NCBI GenBank assembly: GCA_010093815.1 | Contig: ML996572.1 | DNA: 64,000 nt | From: Pseudovirgaria hyperparasitica | Lineage: Eukaryota | Strand: one strand, 5' to 3' | Made by a program: the position numbers and the translations under genes | Part shown: positions 2,163-56,016 of the stretch, in pieces | How positions within the stretch are numbered: position 1 is the stretch's first letter | Layout of the letters: the number at the start of each line of letters is the position of its first letter | Notes under the pieces: model-generated | What the model was told of the DNA's origin: nothing | Database searches by the model: none | What the model saw: only the letters and a program-made list of their open reading frames with translations

Positions 2163-4554
2163 ATGGACAAGATTCGTGTCTCGAAGGTGAACCGTCAAAG
2201 GCGTGTTACCCAGCCTAGCTAATCGTATATCGCTAGGTGGAAGATGTCACACTATGGAGACAGGGTATTCGCGTCGAAGGGACACTACACTTGACAGCCC
2301 ATCATCTCATATTCAGCTATCACTTACCAATATCGCCCGACCAACCCAACGCCCCTCCCAAAAAGCTTGAGAGAGAGTTATGGGTTACTTTCCCCATGAT
2401 AAATGGCTGCACGTACAGACCTGCACCGCTAGCTTCACACCAGTCACCAGCAATACGAATACGCTGTCGAGACTTTACCTTTCTTGCGTTCCATTTTGTT
2501 GTAGAAAGTAAAGCACGAGATGTGTACGACAGTATTCGATCTTTATCATGCAAAGTCGGACGGATAGAAAAGCTTTATGCCTTCAGCTACAAACCGCAAG
2601 CTCCGGAGAACAAAGTCAATGGGTGGGAGTTGTACGATGCAGAGAAAGAGTACCGTCGCCTGGGCATTGGGGGAAAGAATCCAGAGTACGGATGGAGAGT
2701 ATCATATATCAACTCCAACTACAAGGTGTGAAAAAAACCATGGTCGCTAGCATAGCACGACTGACTATCTCGCAGTACTCTCCTACCTACCCGGCCGTTC
2801 TTGTAGTGCCCTCCATAATCTCAGATAACACTCTTACATACGCGGGAAAGTATCGCTCGCGTGCACGGATTCCAGCATTAGTATACAGACACCCTGTGAA
2901 CAACTGCTCCATTACCCGAAGTTCTCAACCCCTAGGTGGGTTTGCACGAAACAGGAGTGTGCAAGATGAGAAGCTAGTAGCCGCGATATTTGCAACAACT
3001 GCAGACAGCGAGAACAACAGCTCGCAAGATACCACGAGTAGTGGTCCAAGATCAACAGGAACCAGCCCAGATGCCAGTATTCAAAGTCTGGACACTGGAG
3101 AGGGGTCCAATAGCAGCATTAACGCTGAGAAATTCGAGGACCAAGTTCTTCAACAAATCGATGCACCTGAGAAGAGGCCGAAAGTATATGGCGCGCAACA
3201 GCGAAATCTCATAGTCGACGCACGTCCCACAGTCAATGCAATAGCCATGCAAGCCGTAGGAAAGGGTTCAGAAAACATGGATTTTTACAAAGATGCAACA
3301 AAGGCTTACCTAGGAATTGACAATATTCATGTCATGCGCAGATCTCTGAACAAGGTCATTTCTGCGCTCAAGGACACTGACATGACACCATTAGGTCCAA
3401 ACCGAGAAACACTAGCGAAGAGTGGCTGGCTAGATCATATCAGTAATCTACTGGATGGAGTCTCTTTGATCGCACGCCAGATTGCAATTCAGCATTCTCA
3501 TGTTTTGATACATTGTTCCGACGGATGGGATCGCACGAGTCAACTGAGCGCTCTGAGCCAACTTTGCCTGGACCCATACTATAGAACCCTAGAGGGCTTC
3601 ATTGTACTGATAGAGAAAGACTGGCTCTCCTTCGGTCACATGTTCCGCTACCGCGCTGGTCTTCTGGGAAGTGATAAATGGTTCGAGGTTGAGAATGAGC
3701 GGTTAGTGGGGAACAGGAATGGAGTCGGCAATGCTGGGGGCCCTGCGAACGCGATAGAGAACGCATTAGCAAAAGCCCAAGGGTTTTTCAATAAAAAGAA
3801 CGACTCCAGGGAACTTCTGTTTGCAGACTCAGACGGCGAAATGCAGGCATATGATTCCCCTGAGGGTCCACTAAAATCGAGAGCAGCCGCTACAAGTAGC
3901 ACTTCTGCCGAGCAAGAGACAGCCACAAAGGTCGATGAAATAAGCCCAATATTTCATCAATTCCTGGATGCGACTTATCAATTGATACGCCAGCACCCTA
4001 CCCGATTTGAGTTCAACGAACGTTTCCTTAGGCGACTACTTTACCATCTATACTCATGTCAGTACGGTTCATTTCTGTATGACAACGAAAGGGAGCGGGT
4101 TGAATCACGTGCAAAGGAGCGGACTAGAAGCGTATGGGATTATTTCCTATCGCGGAAGGAACAGTTTACCAACGCAAATTATGCATCAGCTGTGGACGAT
4201 AATCAAAGGGGCCAAGAACGTGTTCTCTTTCCTATCCCGAAAGATGTAAGATGGTGGGCCGAAGTCTTCGGGCGCAAGGATGAGGAAATGAATGGCTCTT
4301 TGTCAACGACATATTCACCAAAGTCTACCAGTGGTATAACTACGGGAACTGTTCTCTCAGCAGTCGAAAACTCATCTGGGTCCGCAGAAGTTACTCCGCA
4401 ACGCAGACAGGTCCAAGGTCACGACACAGCGATCAGTCCCGCGTGTCTCGCTACTGGGCTTTCGACTCTAAGTGTCGAACAGAGAGATATATCTCCTGGT
4501 CGATCGAGAAGTCCTCGACTATCAAATGGAGGCTTTGAGGTTGAAATGCAGTAA
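2163..4554 (+). CDS. YMR1: Myotubularin-family phosphatidylinositol-3-phosphatase
   Basis: Catalytic VLIHCSDGWDRTSQ motif, RSSQP, WLSFGH and SPIFHQFLD motifs, N-terminal PH-GRAM-like region. ATG at 2163; introns 2187-2236 and 2726-2775. Divergent from RPS3 across 436 bp. Confidence 0.95.
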
Positions 4555-6935: not shown

Positions 6936-7532
6936 GTTCAGCAAACGCCAATTGAGGCAAGAACGACCTATGAAACTGTTGAGTATTTCCATAGTGTATG
7001 TTCAGCTTGCATCATTGGGGCGCAGATAAGTACGACTCAGCCTGCGAGCACCAGCAATCGGACTAAGTAAAGTAGGTTCATTATTGTTCTGGATAATGAC
7101 ACACATAGTTAGATGTTGTGATTGCAGTGAATAACGAGGCTCTAACAAAGCGTAAGGTAAGATGCCACCTACCCCGTTTCTATTACTGCAAGCAGCATAT
7201 GGTGATCAGACTTGAACACTATTCGAGAAATATGCCACTGTGCGTGACAGTTAAGTACGACTCATTTCTTCGTTCGCCATCTGCTAGCGCTCACTCGTGC
7301 GAGGAGGCGTCGTGGCTGTCTCGCTCGTAGTTTGCATGATATATGTGGGGTTGAGGCTACAGGTGATGGATTCTGCTTATCTCGGCTCACCTAATTCAGA
7401 TCCCAGACATATTCCTCTCCGCTGTTCTTATCCGACGTCAGCATAACTGTCAAAGCACGTCCAGATTATCAACAATAACGTTACTAGACTGTCTTAGCGA
7501 GGAAACCCGGGGGGTGTCAAGATCATACATAC

Positions 7533-9477
7533 ATGATGAGAACATATGCCTATGGACCGCTCAGTAGAAAGCAAGACATTAGGATCTTAAAGCTAAATGC
7601 AGGATCGATTCATGATCCGCTCAGAGGATCTCTGGCTCCTCGCAAAGACGATGAGTCTTACGAGGTCTTGCTCTGGGCTATGGAGGAAGGAAACGAGTCC
7701 AGTCGAATCTCGCTCCACGATGAAGGTGGCGTGTCTAATTTTCTGCATATCAAGCCAGACTTGGGGGCAGCGCTGAAAAGCTTGAGACCAAGACAATCTG
7801 GTAATCCGCATCGCAAGCTCTGGATAGATGCGATTTGCGTGAACTGGAAAGATATTCAGGAGAAAAATAAGCAGGTAGCCATGATGGCTCAGATACTCAG
7901 ACAGGCTACGAGAGTATGCCTTTGGCTTGGATCCCATGATCATGATAGCCGCAAAGCAATTGAGTTTATGAGGAGTAAAATCCTAGATCTTGCCCGTATC
8001 GATTACCATTTCAGTCAGGAATCAAGCTTGGATTCCTGCATAGCATTGGCTAGTTTCCTCAACCGACCGTGTTTCGAACAGCACTGGATGGTGCAAGGAA
8101 TTGTCTTGGCTCGGAATGCTGCAATATACTGCGGCGAGGACTGTTTGAGCTGGGACCAATTTGAAGCTGCTGTCTCACTGTTTCGCGTCAAGTACGACTC
8201 ACTAGCTCGGCATCCGGCGTATAGTGCATATAACTTTGGAGATATCAGGGCTTTCAGTGCTGTTCGCCTCGTCGAGGTGACATCTACTCTTGTGGAGCGG
8301 TCCGAGTCGGGCGGTATGTTGTCTCGATCCCTAAGCATCGAAGATCTTGTTTTTATGCTCTCCGATTTCAAGGTGCGCGAGCCACATGACTTGATTTACT
8401 CCGTATTGGCCTTGGGCAGTGGTACAGGGCTTCTGGAATCACAGACTGTAAAACCTGTGGAGGGCAAGACGGGGAGCACTGATAGTCGGCGAAGTACGAC
8501 AGTCATCGCAGTCGACTACGGACAGGACTTTTTTGAAGTCTGCAAGAAGTTCATGGCCTTTACTATCTCCAGATCTGGATCTTTCGATCTAATACTCCAG
8601 CCTTGGGCACATCAGGCTGCGAGTAGGCTACCAAGGAGCAAGAATACCCTTCCATCATGGATCACAATGACCGGACCGGTGCATCAAACTCAAGCAAGCT
8701 CTAGTGCATTTGGCGGCGTGAGCAGAGTTCGCGCCAGTGCTGATCCCTTGTTGAAGTCGGGTCTGTCGCGTTCATATCGGTATAAGGCCTCGTGGCAACG
8801 TGCAAGGCCTGCAAACTGGAGGTTGGGGACCGGCGACAAGGGCTGTAGCCTATTCGTGACAGGCTTTATTCTTGATGCTGTTGGGGAGAGAGGAGAGTCA
8901 GCCGGTGTTGGGATGCCGCCACCAAGCTGGCTTGAATTGACCGAGGACGTGGAGCGATCAGACGCATTCTGGAGGACTCTCGTTGCGGATAGAACCATGG
9001 ATGGTCGCACTGCGCCGAAGTACTACTCTCGTGCATTCATGCATGCTCGACAGCCAGGTTTCATGGTGGATGAGCATGGCCCTTTCGTAGTAGACGAATT
9101 TATCCGGCGTGTACGTGCTGTCACCTGGAAACGCCGCATGATAACGCTCCGGAACGAGCACGAACAATTCGGCAAAGAAGCGGTCATTGGATTAGCACCT
9201 GAACGAACGTGGAGAACAGACAGTAAGATAGCTCACAACTCTGGCAATGCATCTGTACTTAACCCGTGTAGTCATTGCCATTATCGAAGGCTGCTCCGTA
9301 CCGGTCGTTCTCCGTCATGTTCGTGGAACCGAAACGTACAGTCTCATTGGTGAGGCGTACATTCACGGGTACATGGACGGTCAAGCTTGTAGCTTACAGG
9401 AGTATGTTCAACGTGCCGAAAGTACGAATTATGCATTGAAGGAGCAGATGAAGACACGCGAGTTTGAATTGAGTTAG
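7533..9477 (+). CDS. HET (heterokaryon incompatibility) domain protein, HET-6-like architecture, degenerate motifs
   Basis: IRILKL, LWIDAICVN...EKNKQVAMMAQI...RVCLWLG, later DLIYSVLAL, LPSW and C-terminal GCSVPVVLR...LIGEAYIHGYMDG. Intron 9223-9271. Confidence 0.88.
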
Positions 9478-10657
9478 GTCTGTCATCGTCTACACCACCC
9501 CTTTCCCACAATTTTTGTGCCACGGAACACAATAACTCACTTGAGCCTCACACTCGGCCAAGTACACGGATAACTAAATAGAGTCGTAAAAGCTTTCGCT
9601 GCTATCTGATTCTACCAGTACCGTGTTCCAGTTCGTACCCCAGGCTCAGAGATTATGTTGGAGGCGGATGTAGGTGCTCATAACCATTACCCAGTTTTTT
9701 TCTTATACTGCCCTGTGCCCAGCCGTATGTTCTCTCTGGACCTCCTTTTTCTTCTGACTAGAGTCATCCGTTAGCCCTTTGGCTTCATTACACCGCAATC
9801 CATTGAGTTGCGATCTTGCTTGAGAATTCATCTTTAACAAATCACTGAGCCATAGCATCGGCAGGTATGTATATGATCCGTCATAGACAGAAGAGACTCT
9901 TCTTGTCTGTGTACTTAACATTAGGTTAGACGAATGCTGGCCAAGTTCTCAAAATGATATCTATCCACAAATGCCTTCGTATACGGATCTGACTCCAATT
10001 CTGATCCTGGCCAAAATGCACTGTATTTGTGGAAGCGACATAAGAACCTTGCCCACCTCCCACGGAATACAATATCCGTCGTCACTGTCGTTTTTCCTCT
10101 TTCTGCCTCACGCATGTACGTCATCGAATGCCGATCAGATCGTCAGGCCCGTTTGATTGCCAAGAAGGGGGCCGGAATTCAGCCTCGTCCCACGTGCACA
10201 TGTGTACGCGTATAGCAGAAGCCTTGCTAGACCCGTCTGGGAAACGATGATCAAGCATTACAATTGGCAAAGAAAAAGCCAAGATTCCTCTTTTCTAGCT
10301 TGGAGTGGCGCGCTTTGCGAGGCGGAGTGGACGTACGGGCTGAATAGGCCGGATCATTTACTTTGGGCGGGTGTAGCCGGGGGGTTATTGTGATGACTCC
10401 GCCTGGTACCTCCGCAGTGCATACAGTGGTCGGCTTGGTACGGTGTGTGTCGTACGCGTATAAGCTGCCTAGTGTTATGACATTGTTTTGGGGAATTGGT
10501 AGCTTGGGGGGATTGCTCGTTATGGGTAGCTTGGGATGGACGCATGTATTGGTCTTGTGAAGTATAAAAGGCGGCATTCTGCACACGGGATGCCAGTGCC
10601 ATCTTACACCCAGAACGCTATTCCAATACGTTACACAGTTCCAGTCTCTAATACGGG

Positions 10658-12463
10658 ATGCTTCTTCAAACTCTCCTCCCCCTCGCTCCCCTAGGCGCAC
10701 TCGCATACTCCTCTCTCCAAACACAAACCAACCCCCTATCCAAGCGCGACGACGAGTTTAACTGGACCTCAATCCACCCAACTCCCGACCTCCAATACCA
10801 CGATTGCTACACCACATTCAAGTGCGCACGTCTACAAGTACCCCTCGACTGGTCCCTCGATGCGCCCACAAACCTAACGACCAACACCTCCTTCGCCATC
10901 GCAATCGTAACCCTCCCCGCAACCGTTCCAGCCACAGATCCAAGCTTCGGCGGCACCATCGTCACGAACCCAGGCGGGCCAGGAGGTTCAGGTACCGATT
11001 TTGGGCTGTCGTCGAGCACTCGCTTGCAGCAGATACTCGAGGGCGAGAAGCACTACGAGATCCTATCCTTTGACCCGCGTGGTGTGTATCGGACTACGCC
11101 GACACTCGATTGCTACGAGGGTGATGTTGCTACTCGGCTCGTCGAGATATTGCAGACGCGTGGGGTTGGGCGGATCGGGGAGGAGCCAGATGGTGTGCGC
11201 GATCGGTATTTGATGGCTCAGGCGGCGAGCAGGTTGTGTGAGGAGGTGACAGCGAATGTGCTACCGCATATTTCGACGGCGAGTGTGGCGCGCGATATGG
11301 TTGAGATTGTTGATCGTGTGGAGGAGTTGCGGCGGACGGAGACTAATAGGACGGCGACGGAGGTGCCGAGGTTGAATTTGCTGGGGATCAGTTATGGGTC
11401 GGCGCTGGGCATGACGTTCAGTGCCATGTTCCCGGAGCGCGTCGGGAAGGTGATGATTGATGGGATCCTGGATATTGATGACTATACTAGTGGTGTGAGT
11501 ATGCCGTTGGCAGTTTCAAGGGAACTTTACATTGACGAAGTGTAGGAATGGAGGAAGAACCTCGACGATGCCGAAGCCGTCCTAGATGACTTCTATCAAA
11601 ACTGTTTCGACGCAAATTGCACCCTACGCAATCCATCTGACAGCAACTGGACCGCAATCCGCGACCGTGTGTCGGCGTTCCTTACAGAATTCGAGCGAAA
11701 CCCGGTGCCTGCTTTCAGAAACAAACAACCCACAGTCCTCACCTCTGACGACATGCGCGACCAGATGCTCCTCGCATTGTACGGACCAAACGTCACATCC
11801 GAAGGCTTGGCGCAAACCCTCTCAGATACCATCGAGGGGAACTACACAACACTTGCCACGGCCGTGCTAATCTCAGACGATGAACTCTTAGCCTCGCCAT
11901 ATCTCTGGAGCCGAGACGTGCGTACGGCTGTAGGATTTGCCGACGCAGTGCCTGAAGCCGGGAACAAGACTCTCGAGCAACGACAAGCGGACGTCCAATT
12001 CCTCACCGAGCAAGCCCCCACGTTGGCAGGCACCTTATGGCCGGATATCACGATCGCCATGAGCGGACGTACAGTCCGTCCGCGATACTCCTTCACTGGG
12101 CCATACACAGTTCCTGTCGCGGATCCTCACAATGCTTCAACTCCGGCAGCGCCCCTATTATTCCTGTCGGCTCGTCTCGACCCCGTCACACCGTTGCGAA
12201 ATGCGCAGGCCATGGCAGAGAGATTTCCCGGATCGAGCGTGATGATTCAGGAGTCGGCGGGACATAGTGCTTTGTTCTCATCGGATAGTGAGTGCACGAA
12301 TGCCGTACTGCGAGAGTTCTTCGGGACGGGGAAAGTACCGGAGATGAACTTTAGCTGTGAGGCTGATTGTAAGCCATTTGTGGGTTGTAAGACTGCAAAT
12401 GGGACTTTTGTCGGTGAAGACCTGCAAGTGCGCAGAGAACCATTTCTACCGCGGATGATTTAG
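10658..12463 (+). CDS. Secreted alpha/beta-hydrolase (tripeptidyl-aminopeptidase/TAP-like)
   Basis: Signal peptide, CARLQVPLDW, NPGGPGGSG, FDPRGV, nucleophile GISYG, DPVTP, GHS. Intron 11495-11545. Confidence 0.92.
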
Positions 12464-13588
12464 TCTTTCTCGGAGTTTGAGATGTGTCTAACGGTGTTGA
12501 AAGAAGTTATATTGTAAGATAGAATCTCATCTCAGGTCCCTGAATATATTATACTTAGACTCAAGCGAAGCACTGCAGTCGACAGCCGACATAAGTGTTG
12601 TCGAGTTCTAAAAGTTTCTCGTAGTTAGAAATAGTCGCCAATATACGAACGTAGAACATTCTGAAGTCGTCTTGACGGAGCGTCGTATCACTAGCTCTTG
12701 AGCTTTTCGCTACCAACATCTACGTTTAAATTCAGTAACAGGATCAAGATTAAAGAAGCCCATACCGCATCAGGGAGCACTTCATTCCTCTTTAGGTCCA
12801 ATGAACATTTCTTTGGCTCACCGAAGTGCGGTGTCCGAGGAATGGTGTAATTATGGCAATTGCATTGAGCATGTCACGGTAGATCGACTCTTCAAAATGA
12901 GCGAAGTGGCCGCACTACTAACGGCCAAAGAATATCTTCTGTTGCTCTGTGTGTTCAGGAGGATAGGATGAATAGGGGACTTTTGGCACCCCATCATTCT
13001 TCTCCTTCCATTCCAGTCTATTAAGCCCGAAGCTTCGAAACGCAACGGCGGACGCAATACGTATCTCTCACGAGCCACGACTCGAGGAATTTCTAGAGGC
13101 TCAGCAACTTTGAATTAGGCAATGCCCGGATCCCGGATGTTGATGCAGCTTCAGCTGATAGAAGAAGGTGAGGATGCATCGTCACACAAGGAACCCTGGC
13201 CGTCGATCGGCAGTTAGGCTTTGGGCAAAGTCTAGACCATTTCTGGGATAGTGGCTATGGTGGATAATGTACATGAATCTTCGCTACATGCGAAAGGGAG
13301 AACATAAACAGGAATAGCTACTCATACTTAAACAAGACAACTGCTTCTACGCATTTGGTTTTCATGACCTCGTTTCGTCATGACTACTACACCCGGCGAA
13401 GAGCGCTGAACGATAAGAGAGATATCCACGGTGCAACGCCTCACACGCAGAACCTGGTCGAATCTGCGATGCATCCGACAAGCCAACAGATGACTTATTA
13501 ATATGTCAAGGCACTTGTCGACGGACAACCAGACCAATTCTGGTTAATTAATGCACTGATCAACGTGGGGTCGGACTTCTAGCTTCCT

Positions 13589-13703
13589 TCGTCGTTTGCC
13601 TAGAACCTGACTCTCTTGGCATTCGGATGTCGCGCTATGTCTCCCCCACCCAAATTTACGTGAGACGGACATATTCTGGCATTTTGTCGTGTACTCGTCG
13701 CCA
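13589..13703 (+). repeat. Left terminal inverted repeat (115 bp)
   Basis: TCGTCGTTTGCCTAGAACCTGACTCTC...GTACTCGTCGCCA is the reverse complement of 16863-16977 with one G/A difference at 13686. Confidence 0.97.
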
Positions 13704-13812
13704 ACGCGTTGCTATTGCTGATTACACGTATTCGGTACGTTATTGAGGCTATCTAGTAGTTAGTATACCTATTATATAATATATTTCTGGTGTTTTCGAC
13801 TCACAGTCGCGT

Positions 13813-14922
13813 ATAGTGGGCCTACCTGGTAAGGCGTACGACGCGAGTACCTATCGCCGAATTGACTTCCTCCTTGAGCACGACGTGCCCTCTACTATTA
13901 CCGCAGAGAAGTCTCAAGTATCTGTCTCGACAGTCAATCGTATGAGGTATAATCTTGCTACGTATGGCCAGCGAAACAAGCCTCTATCCGCGAAGACGCG
14001 TGGTCGTGAGACTATCCTCAGTGATCGCGTAATGGGATTACTATTCGAGCACCTGCTCGAAGAGGGATGGCTATACCTTGATGAGATGGTAAAATGGGTA
14101 TATAAAGAGCTCGAGATAGTAACCTCACCATCTACTATCTTAAAGCAGCTAAAGAAGAGAGGGTGGACTAAGCGTCTACTACAGCGTATTTATTCCCAAC
14201 GCTCTAAGGTTGCGCGTCGTTCCTATCGTGAGGATATTACTCAGCTACCTGCTGATCGCCTTATATTTATTGATGAGGTTATCTTTAACGAGAAAACGGG
14301 ATGGAGGAGACGAGGTAGAGCTCCTCGTGGAGAGACTCCTAGGCAATTTGCGAGGATCAATCGAGGCCCTACGTATAGCGCATGTGGTGCTATATCTGTT
14401 AATGGCTTCGTTACCTATGGTATTAAGAAAGGTTACTATAATAAGCAAGAGTTCATCGACTGGCTAGAGGTATACCTATTCCCTAGCCTACAAGAGAAGT
14501 ACCCTAATCAGGCTATGGTTATCATCATGGATAATCTCTCTCTTCATACCGACGACGACGTTGCTCCTATAGTTGCTGCAGCTGGTTATACTCTTCGATA
14601 TACACCGCCTTACTCACCTGATTATAATTCTATTGAGTTGGTATGGGCAGTCCTGAAGGCGTGGATTCGAAGGTGGTACCTGTTTGTACGTGAGTAGTCA
14701 TACAACTTCGAGGAGTTCTTACACCGCGCCTTTAAGGATAGCTGCTGCGATCAGTTCGCTCTCCGCTTCTTTAAGTATGCGGCTAACGGTTGGTATATTG
14801 ATGAAACGCTACGAGAGCGTATTATCGCGGATTTGAAGCAGTTTGAGCGTGGTAGAAGGTGTGGTTTTGCGGCAGAAGTGAGGGATATTAGTCAACTTTT
14901 TACTATACTCTTTACTGACTAA
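13813..14922 (+). pseudogene. DD34E transposase (DDE_3/IS630-Tc1-like), lightly RIP-damaged
   Basis: N-terminal HTH-like region, LIFIDE, IIMDNLSLH, PPYSPDYNSIELVW with 34 residues between the second D and the E. Probable ATG>ATA at 13813 and one in-frame TAG at 14695; the frame continues to TAA at 14920-14922. Confidence 0.9.
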
Positions 14923-15020
14923 CGTCACGTTGTTCTCGCTTATATTCATAGGGAGGAGATATACTCATTTATATATATACGTATTTAATATGAACTTCGT
15001 AGCATCTCTACTTAAAAACC

Positions 15021-16781
15021 TCATATAGCCCCAGAAGCGAGTCCATGGAGTGCCTTCGCTGCTTCCTCCTGTTCTACTACCTTAAGATTACCCTTATACT
15101 TATGAAGATAGCGACGAGCATCTAATACTATGCTTAATAGGACGCCATACGCCTTCGCTGCCTCATGATAAGCAGTTCCAGGACGAGTAATCTCTTTAAC
15201 CTGCCTATACTAATAATAGTTATCAACTACGTACTCGCGGAGTAACCTAATCCCGTCCTTCGTCCTCGTATGAGTTTCCTTCACATGTCGCTATTCAAGT
15301 GCTAACTAAACCACGTTAGCCTGATGAAGTTCTGGTTGAGTAGGGCTACTATATGGTGCTGGATTTATCGTCTCTAGCGGCGTCGATAGACGAGGGCGCT
15401 GACTCTTAACCTTACGAGTCGGCGACGGTGACGTATAGGGCGGTGGAATACCTAATGGATATAGAGGCACACGTGATGCGAATACAGGATTAAATCTAGC
15501 CTGTTGAAGTTGAGCCTGCCTCATCTACTCATTAAAACGTTGACGCTCAGCCCTTTCCTCATCCTTTACTCTTCTATCTTCTTGACGGTACTAAAGCTCG
15601 TTAATCGCTGCTTAAACCTTCTGAGTCTAGAGTTGCTCAGTAAGGGTGGCGAGGTCGACTTGTCCAGATATACCTGTCTTCTTTACTGACTTTCTCTCAT
15701 AGGGTTTAGATACGAGTTACTTTATTACACCTATAGGAGGATCCTCAACGGAGGCTCTAGTAATACCAGCAGTAATAGCGTGTGCCTATGGCTCTGTCGA
15801 CGCGCGTTTAATCTTATAATGAAGACGACTAGATAAGGATAGGACGATAAAACAGTGGCCTCGCTCATTAGTACAACCAACGTCCGTACAACGGTAAGTT
15901 AACTCTATTATACTAATTATCTCGATCCGTTTTAGGCCAGCTTCCTTCCTCTACTAAGCATCGTTATGTATAATCGCGGCACGCCCTCTTAATAGAGTCT
16001 CTATATTCGGCGAACTTCGAAGTCCTGTACCTGGCGATGGTGTAGGAGAGTCACGGTGACGAGTACGTTGAGGTTGCTAAAGAGGTTTCTTACCCCAGGA
16101 CTCGCACTTCACGCTATCCTTAAAGGTAATCATAATAACCTTATCCTTCGTATTGGCGAGCGAGTGGATCTCGTCTATGACTGTATAGACTCTCTCCCAG
16201 CTAATAATCGACCAGTCATTGATAGCGAGAGTCCTCCTCTGTTTCTTCCTCACACTAAGGCTATATACTACCTAGCGAGTATTAAAGGCCCAGTCGTTAG
16301 TACTGAGTCTCGTACTAATCAAGTCGTTAATCGTACTCTCGTACACTTCACGTTCAAACGCACATCGCGGAACAGTAGTGAGTTCATCTGCCGCCTCGTT
16401 CTTTCTATTAACACGTAATCTCTAGGACACGTGGATCTTATACGTCTCCTCTTCATCTTCTATAACCTCATCCCGCTCGCTATCTATAGAATCTACTAGA
16501 GGAGGAGGAGGAGGAGGAGGAGGAGATAGAGACGAAGAGACAGATGGAGGAGCAGGTATAGCCTCAGGAGGCGCCGAAATGTCGACAACACGTGGTTTTT
16601 TCGGCGCCGCGGTACGTTTACGAGCTTGTTTCTTCGCCATTGCCCTCGCAGTAGTAGCCTCTACTAATTTAGTAGTAGATTTACGCTGACGAGGAGGAGG
16701 AGGAGGAGGAGGAGGTTCGACTGACGCGTCTGTCGTGAACTGAACGCTTCGAGCGGGTTTTTTCGACCTGGAGGAGGGCAT
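15021..16781 (-). pseudogene. Transposon second gene (ORF2), about 586 codons, Cys3-His motif protein, RIP-inactivated
   Basis: One reading frame without frameshifts from ATG 16781 to TGA 15021, broken only by about 14 TAG/TAA codons where CAG/CAA/TGG fit. Contains poly-Pro, YRCTDVGCTNERGHCFIV...HYKI...(W)AHAITAG...DPP, a Gln/Glu-rich coiled coil and an SSP motif. Confidence 0.85.
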
Positions 16782-16862
16782 ATGGGTAAAAAAAATACGT
16801 GGAGACTCAACACCAAGTATATTGACTAATATTCGATAGTATACGTATATTTAGACTTCATG

Positions 16863-16977
16863 TGGCGACGAGTACACGATAAAATGCCAGAATATGTCCG
16901 TCTCACGTAAATTTGGGTGGGGGAGACATAGCGCGACATCCGAATGCCAAGAGAGTCAGGTTCTAGGCAAACGACGA
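16863..16977 (-). repeat. Right terminal inverted repeat (115 bp)
   Basis: TGGCGACGAGTACACGATAAAATGCC...TTCTAGGCAAACGACGA, the reverse complement of the left TIR. Confidence 0.97.
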
Positions 16978-17127
16978 CTTCCACACGACACGCGAAAGAC
17001 TACTCATACCGCCCCTTATATTACAAGTCCAAACGATGAGCCGCATCGTTCTATAATAACTTCATGTAGCCTATGTCTGACTCTGTATAACGCTCGTACT
17101 TGTCCTCTCTAGTCTCGTCGCTTTGCA

Positions 17128-54912: not shown

Positions 54913-55410
54913 ATATATCACATCAACATAATTAACCTAGCAACACCACGCTCCCGTCCCATCACAACAACCCACATCCCACGTTCCCCCATCTTACCTC
55001 CCCCAGCATCCCCAGCATCCCACTATCCCAGCATCTCGCACAGCCAACCCTAAGCATCCCTCCAACCCGCACACACAACGAACCACGTCAGAAGTCGTTT
55101 GTTTCACAATGCATACATACATCATCCTGCACTCCCTCCCTCCCTCACTTGCATAACCTGCATTACCCTCCCCAATCCCGCCACCTCGTTTTGGTATTTC
55201 TTTCTTCGTCAATCACACGGAATATCCCGAGAAACACGCACAGAGAACTGGTCCACACCAATACCAATACCATATACTGGTCCTATCAAGGATAATACTA
55301 ACTTAGCAGTCTGCATCCACATAAAAACCACAGGTCTTTGGAAAATGTTTGTCCGATATCCGCGTATACACACATAGACACGCGTATAATTACACGTATA
55401 CACGTACACG

Positions 55411-55482
55411 CATACACGCATACACGCATACACGCATACACGCATACACGCATACACGCATACACGCATACACGCATACACG
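55411..55482. repeat. Perfect tandem repeat (CATACACG) x9
   Basis: Nine identical 8-mers, with degenerate copies on the left. Confidence 0.95.
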
Positions 55483-56016
55483 CACACACAGTAATTACAT
55501 ACTAAGCGTAGTCGTCCCGTCAGGTCATCAGGCTAGTATCCCAGTAGGCCCATCAATCATATCATACCACGCCTTCTATCCATCCATGCGTGCAGTGCTC
55601 CTGCCTTACTTACCTTACCCACCTCACCTCCTCCACCCTCAACCTATCCTCCTCCACCACTTTCCCCAGAACACTAATTATGAAAAGAGGGCAATGGGGG
55701 CGTGCGATTGTGAGTTGGAGTGGAGGGACGGTGTGCGTGGTGGTTGTATATATATATTTACATAGAGAGAGAGAGAGAGAGGTTTAGCGTACATCCCTTC
55801 AATCACATCAAACAAACCGTATTTTTGTTTCTGTATTGTAGTGGCGCAAAACACGTGATGTGGTGTGGCGTGAATTGCTGTCCGTTTTGTATGTCTTGTC
55901 TATATATATGGCATGGCATGGCTACAACTACTCTCCGCACCAACACCCGTGTGCACGTCCAGAAAACACACATCCATCTCTATACATCATCAGGCAAATC
56001 AAGCACGCACGCATCT

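Follow-up and report, generated by a model that had tools for sequence, protein, structure and literature searches.

Which kind of mobile element lies at positions 13589-16977 of the window, the whole 64,000-nucleotide stretch of Pseudovirgaria hyperparasitica contig ML996572.1 that was analyzed, and does the second gene inside it really belong to it? The element sits between host genes. To its right there is a FAD-binding gene, and the translations of the two genes to its left (7488-9353 and 10652-12463) read as one HET-domain-like and one alpha/beta hydrolase-like protein. An inverted-repeat search found terminal inverted repeats (TIRs) of 115 bp at 13589-13703 (+ strand, beginning with TCGTCGTTTGCC) and at 16863-16977 (- strand). 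They are complementary over 115 nt at 99% and form the only long inverted pair within the 64-kb window. Between them lie two tail-to-tail genes, a transposase on the + strand and ORF2 on the - strand, with only 98 bp between their stop codons, exactly the enclosed pair described in the initial annotation. We consider it very probable that the family as a whole is a two-gene fungal lineage related to IS630/Tc1. The window element itself is probably a RIP-inactivated copy of an autonomous two-protein cut-and-paste transposon from this old lineage, in which ORF2 would be modulatory.

The transposase frame (13813-14922, + strand) contains one premature TAG (14695-14697) and matches the Pfam family DDE_3 with an E value of 3e-33. 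Its catalytic codons, D at 14272, D at 14530 and E at 14635 on the + strand, correspond to D154, D240 and E275. They have the DD34E spacing that had been read from the sequence, and a spacing of 34 also occurs in 86 of 112 relatives. Pfam identified no HTH family in this RIP-mutated protein; many of its homologues have one. The start of the gene had been placed at 13813, and an ATG made by splicing had been overlooked. In contigs from the runs X2 and X4, which derive from related copies, position 13758 is joined to 13817 across a stretch with GT..AG ends (GTTAGT...TAG, 13759-13816, + strand), and its removal joins A13758 to TG. In lineage B, described below, the transposase starts in the same manner, with A, then GTTAGT...TAG, then TG. 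Because this intron splits the ATG, the true start is probably 13758 rather than 13813, with the main exon at 13817-14922 and a product of 368 aa once spliced. X2 and X4 are not recorded as RNA; we take them as such because the GT..AG and CT..AC stretches of neighbouring host genes are skipped in them, as they are not in X1 and X3.

ORF2 occupies a single frame of 586 codons from 16781 to 15021 on the - strand, recognized by its reading frame and by 31 intact homologues. As first proposed, the gene is fragmented by RIP and yet its frame is preserved: there are 14 internal RIP-type stops (12 TAG and 2 TAA) and no frameshift. The RIP index TA/AT reaches 1.35 within the element, compared with 0.74-0.76 on either side. 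The element shows 178 differences from its nearest copy; 162 are transitions, of which 133 fall at CpA. A transcript of a related copy, running on the transposase strand, enters ORF2 in antisense and is spliced there at a GT..AG intron that has CTAAC as its branch motif (15268-15319, + strand; joint in X2 and X4). A further GT..AG joint on the antisense transcript, at 16123-16214, is less certain.

In the 35.4-Mb genome a DNA search for the family yields 87 matches, among them full-length copies at 94% and 77%, and the search with ORF2 yields 45. All full-length copies found there carry stops. ORF2 lies tail to tail with three transposase lineages, A (that of the window), B and D, which are 35-56% identical. 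Lineage B has TIRs of 94 bp and stands at 54-58% where lightly mutated and at about 40% where heavily mutated; the value for lineage D is about 35%. Copies at about 40% and about 55% were considered as separate lineages, and this was rejected, both being lineage B with a different RIP load. One lineage D copy (L221) has no ORF2, and a portion of a fourth type of ORF2 survives in the relic L058. There are also MITEs of 456-518 bp with lineage A ends.

If the element is related to Tc1/mariner, then we can ask: Is it flanked by the expected TA? The window copy reads CT on both sides (13587-13588 and 16978-16979), a non-palindromic direct repeat. In lineages A and B, for which 51 distinct ends were tallied, the flank is AT in 48, AG in two, CT in one and TA in none, where the CT and one AG both come from the window copy. 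Position -3 is unconstrained at these ends, which excludes a TA target for both lineages. In lineage D both left ends examined read AT before CCGT. The initial annotation missed this 2-bp duplication with its preference for AT, and the absence of a TA duplication is the reason why we do not file the element as canonical Tc1/mariner.

It could be argued that AT is no duplication at all and that an element with the termini T...A is inserted between an A and a T. The paralogous empty site L165 shows a single GT at the point where AT flanks the element on both sides in the filled site L002, and by itself this fits a 2-bp duplication and an insertion between A and T alike. The MITE L064, with its unequal flanks AG and AT, would be allowed by this reading as well and is neutral on the question. 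The CT on both sides of the window copy favours a true 2-bp duplication, since it is not palindromic and the duplication model needs no mutation to produce it; we therefore regard insertion without duplication as quite improbable. Four sequencing runs from two samples show no empty allele for the insertion in the window, and the paralogues of the flank of the MITE L004 (L168-L170) are too rearranged to give a clean empty site. One of the pair L169/L170 has ATCCAT where the other has AT. This resembles an excision footprint, the duplication plus two terminal bases, and is suggestive only.

How far does the second gene extend beyond this genome? A word-index search with the RIP-mutated ORF2 retrieved no homologues, and a profile search was required. 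Searched against 1.84 billion representatives, a profile of nine pieces from the same genome detected 31 proteins, all intact, with E values of 0.001 or less, and a second profile added 25 homologues. The named members come from Paraphaeosphaeria, Clathrospora, Massariosphaeria, Eremomyces, Aspergillus carlsbadensis, Glutinoglossum, Geoglossum and Lipomyces, and thus span Dothideomycetes, Eurotiomycetes, Geoglossomycetes and Lipomyces. Paraphaeosphaeria minitans is the one case among the named NCBI homologues in which the gene neighbourhood was seen, and here ORF2 (PMIN01_12092) and the transposase (PMIN01_12093) have consecutive tags and accessions. Among 25 ORF2 homologues checked for their source contigs, seven have a longest contig exactly equal in size to that of one of 116 transposase matches, and 18 have no such partner. 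Among 80 metagenome loci fetched by their transposase, most of them short or bacterial-like, ORF2 is present in six, always downstream and on the opposite strand. Four of these (L084, L085, L087 and L093) match a profile made without them at E values of 1e-11 to 1e-35, L083 matches the own-genome profile at 2e-13, and L117 matches weakly at 2e-4. Matches of profile A6 to L083, L085, L087, L093 and L117, and the A2-A6 profile match, are circular and were excluded.

The layout is therefore that of a conserved two-component family, as had been supposed: ORF2 is paired with three lineages of transposase in P. hyperparasitica, occurs at the six metagenome loci and neighbours the transposase in P. 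minitans. Linkage is not universal. Thirteen loci of the fungal clade extend for at least 600 bp beyond the transposase on its downstream side; five of them have ORF2 and eight do not, and L078, L080 and L081 are complete single-gene elements of 1.4 kb, the last two flanked by TA. In the transposase tree, which covers only the homologues retrieved here and some bacterial IS630 sequences, such single-gene relatives with TIRs nest inside the ORF2 clade, and the transposase of L078 is uninterrupted. So ORF2 is present across a wide clade and has been lost in places. The initial annotation had asked whether ORF2 homologues might prove to be host genes unlinked to transposases; they are linked and convergent wherever the DNA was seen.

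At two of these loci that carry ORF2 the element reads TA before CAG, namely L087, where one end was seen, and L093, where the flanks are palindromic and the boundary is ambiguous. We considered that ORF2 determines the AT target and rejected this on account of both loci. Because ORF2 also occurs in TA-flanked relatives, the AT dinucleotide is not set by it, and the targeting role first suggested for this protein is unlikely as far as the dinucleotide is concerned. In L093 the TIRs of 144 bp (4319-4462 and 7240-7383) overlap the 5' part of each gene, and the two frames start alike. L117 is AT-rich and intron-bearing, groups with a Rhizophagus protein and reads AT before CGCCG (an ambiguous boundary); its Glomeromycota-like ORF2 (2469-3344) has an additional N-terminal Cys-rich region with CxxC pairs, unlike the ascomycete proteins.

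The second level of comparison concerned the evolution of both genes along the same lineages. We used 14 ORF2-transposase pairs, of which seven were seen in the DNA, one was paired by locus tag and six by an equal-sized source contig with their orientation unseen. Tree distances for the two proteins are correlated (Mantel rho 0.84, p 0.0001; rho 0.88 for the 10 closer pairs alone), and 8 of 11 splits are common to both trees, against a maximum of three in 2000 shuffles. The comparison of phylogenies that had been recommended at the outset thus shows that ORF2 and the transposase co-diverge. RIP does not make transversions, and transversions between the sublineages of A number 25/19/47 at the three codon positions of ORF2 and 16/12/31 at those of the transposase. 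These counts show that ORF2 is under purifying selection.

Could ORF2 nevertheless be a captured host gene, carried as passive cargo? The annotations of several fungi list its homologues as ordinary hypothetical proteins, which would agree with such an origin. However, the selection on ORF2 is frame-specific, and its tree is congruent with that of the transposase. Moreover, the intact homologue P0130 matches only two places in the P. hyperparasitica genome, both within elements, and no intact host-type copy was found there. The reading as captured cargo is thus largely refuted, and we consider it very improbable. The ORF2 family instead accounts for a set of these "hypothetical proteins" in fungal annotations.

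What kind of protein is ORF2? Its sequence has no match among PDB sequences, and no Pfam family scores above its cut-off in 18 intact homologues, so that neither a Myb/SANT family nor, by Pfam and PDB sequences, the RuvC nuclease of Fanzor/TnpB was found. Pfam SAM_1 is scored in the L117 homologue only (E 0.001; 19.8 bits, below the curated cut-off of 23). In the model of homologue P0132 (mean pLDDT 77) the N-terminus is predicted to be basic and disordered, and it is followed by a beta-grasp domain, the Cys/His knuckle, one long helix and a C-terminal domain of helices, an arrangement different from that of Fanzor. By alignment to this model the putative PB1-like beta-grasp domain maps to about 16086-16445 of the window (- strand). 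Its best matches other than coiled coils are PB1 domains (4mjs_A, Z 7.0, rmsd 3.1, 84 of 88 residues aligned; 2g4s_A, Z 6.7, with the full-length model), and other beta-grasp proteins top the Foldseek list, in which no ORF2 model had a match at E 0.001. The Cys/His knuckle (about 15732-15914, - strand), C-x4-C-x-N-x4-C...H...W, is the most conserved motif of the family and is modelled confidently; its cysteines are the invariant residues of the family and are retained in the window copy. It is a putative zinc site and may bind zinc and nucleic acid. The named clusters of the ESM Atlas include no family for it, and the fold searches of whole ORF2 models listed no fold match for it. A charged long helix, coiled-coil-like in the model, follows at about 15507-15659 (- strand).

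The C-terminal domain (about 15057-15329, - strand) appears SAM-like. In the model of the L087 homologue it superimposes on the SAM domain of tankyrase (Z 7.7, rmsd 2.1, 62 of 63 residues aligned), and SAM domains fill both fold lists, with HhH-type folds (Rad51, NusA) within about 1.5 Z. An initial reading of this region as HTH_psq was given up in view of the fold searches. The fold scores of the PB1-like and SAM-like domains, Z 7-7.7, are middling, and both assignments are predictions from models. ESM Atlas features for P0132 point to unnamed Basidiomycota clusters of 300-480 aa (0.88-0.90) and to a SAM cluster (0.79); the former are possible basidiomycete members of the ORF2 family and serve as leads only.

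PB1 and SAM domains are known to polymerise. By analogy with its family, the DD34E transposase would bind the TIRs, excise the element and insert it at a staggered cut of 2 bp, which in this family falls at AT, and the same transposases may have mobilised the MITEs of 450-520 bp. ORF2 may assemble with itself through its PB1-like, coiled-coil and SAM-like domains, may contact element DNA or chromatin through the knuckle and the basic N-terminus, and would in this manner maintain expression or mobility of the element despite host silencing. We propose only tentatively that ORF2 is a polymerising modulatory accessory factor which protects the element from silencing. That it is modulatory in some way is probable because single-gene relatives with TIRs nest in the clade and related transposases have HTH domains of their own. 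These nested relatives argue for a dispensable modulator, and they could be complemented in trans.

In PIF/Harbinger and MuDR a second protein is needed for transposition, and ORF2 might likewise bind the transposase as a cofactor of the transpososome required for excision or integration. The close co-divergence of the two proteins, the convergent genes that each start just inside a TIR and the several protein-interaction folds predicted in ORF2 agree with such a function. However, it is rather unlikely in view of the single-gene TIR elements nested in the clade, L078 among them with its uninterrupted transposase, and of the occurrence of ORF2 with AT and TA flanks alike. It is also conceivable that ORF2 restrains the transposase, by sequestration in a polymer or by an antisense effect where the convergent transcripts overlap, since the genes are 98 bp apart and transposase-strand transcripts of a related copy enter ORF2 and are spliced there. 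Against this, a multi-domain protein of 580-750 aa conserved across fungal classes would be costly for mere repression, and read-through from RIP-damaged copies may be cryptic; we judge negative regulation improbable. Returning to a modulator that favours the element, we can imagine, still more speculatively than its protective role, an ancient fungal IS630-like clade, reaching from Ascomycota possibly to Glomeromycota, whose PB1-knuckle-SAM protein would counter genome defence and of which one branch would have switched from TA, the target of nearly all ITm elements, to AT.

TA targeting and a single gene are the textbook traits of Tc1/mariner. The window family shares with the IS630/Tc1/mariner group the DDE_3 domain with DD34E, the TIRs, a 2-bp duplication and MITE derivatives, and it differs in its AT duplication and in its conserved convergent second gene. 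It is related to this group and most likely works like Tc1/mariner, from which it departs in these two usual characters. Among fungi, hupfer (Beauveria bassiana) and Ant1 (Aspergillus niger) are IS630/Tc1-like and duplicate TA. To our knowledge no second gene has been described in either, and hupfer is about 3.3 kb long with about 2 kb of this unexplained, a part that could hold an ORF2. In MuDR two convergent genes, mudrA and mudrB, start from the two TIRs, and VANDAL elements encode an accessory or anti-silencing protein, VANC. PIF/Harbinger has a 3-bp duplication and a Myb/SANT partner, in contrast to the 2 bp of the window family and its lack of Myb/SANT.

As the cited papers describe them, ITm elements duplicate TA and usually have one gene (PMC7325037, PMC4054914, PMC4122938, PMC13469147, all in part). 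The statement that Tc1/mariner elements normally encode a transposase alone thus stands as a usual condition and fails as a strict one, multi-ORF elements such as TBE, Tec and Dici being known already (PMC7325037, PMC13469147). Dici of Diutina catenulata is likewise a DD34E ITm element from a fungus and contains additional coding sequences. It is set apart here by its description: it duplicates TA and has a transposase of 432-478 aa, its extras are an orphan of 143-146 aa and a relic transposase, and its 22 relatives mostly have one CDS (PMC13469147, in part). The TBE and Tec elements, compared likewise by description, combine a DD34E transposase with maintained extra ORFs, one of them with a zinc finger in TBE; unlike the window family they are restricted to ciliates and have three ORFs, and Tec has a recombinase (PMC7325037, in part). 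ISL2EU resembles the window family in having a second ORF and in duplicating 2 bp, which are typically AT, but its transposase is IS5/PIF-related and has THAP, and its partner protein is a YqaJ exonuclease; neither of these was found here (PMC4122938, in part). According to the same source, MuDR and VANDAL are unlike it in their Mutator transposase and duplication of 9-12 bp (PMC4122938); ORF2 is likened to their second proteins by layout and proposed role only.

Two fungal surveys (PMC5751038, 10.1101/2025.06.16.659975, both in part) mention no such second gene, and the literature, mostly open-access papers without their supplements, gave no description of the two-gene layout or of AT-duplicating Tc1 elements. 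The two-part lineage is apparently undescribed in this literature; an existing Repbase or Dfam entry for the family is quite possible. ORF2, which belongs to no known family and co-evolves with the transposase across fungal classes, is a candidate anti-silencing or regulatory factor of fungal transposons. Relatives with AT and with TA in one clade make a natural pair for asking what sets target choice in DDE transposases, a question which bears on transposon tools.

Some minor features accompany the copies of this family. At L024/L077 (C38:14000-19000) a lineage B element is nested in a lineage A element, and lineage B ends, all AT-flanked, cluster nearby. A 150-bp repeat with many other sites in the genome splits a lineage B transposase at about 1834-1987 of L073. 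At L052:1256-2444 (C49) there is an inverted repeat of 352 bp, 99% identical, which includes fragments of ORF2 and of the transposase and is a possible source of hairpin RNA. Within the window itself, a tandem array with an 8-bp unit similar to ACGCATAC occupies positions 55362-55503.
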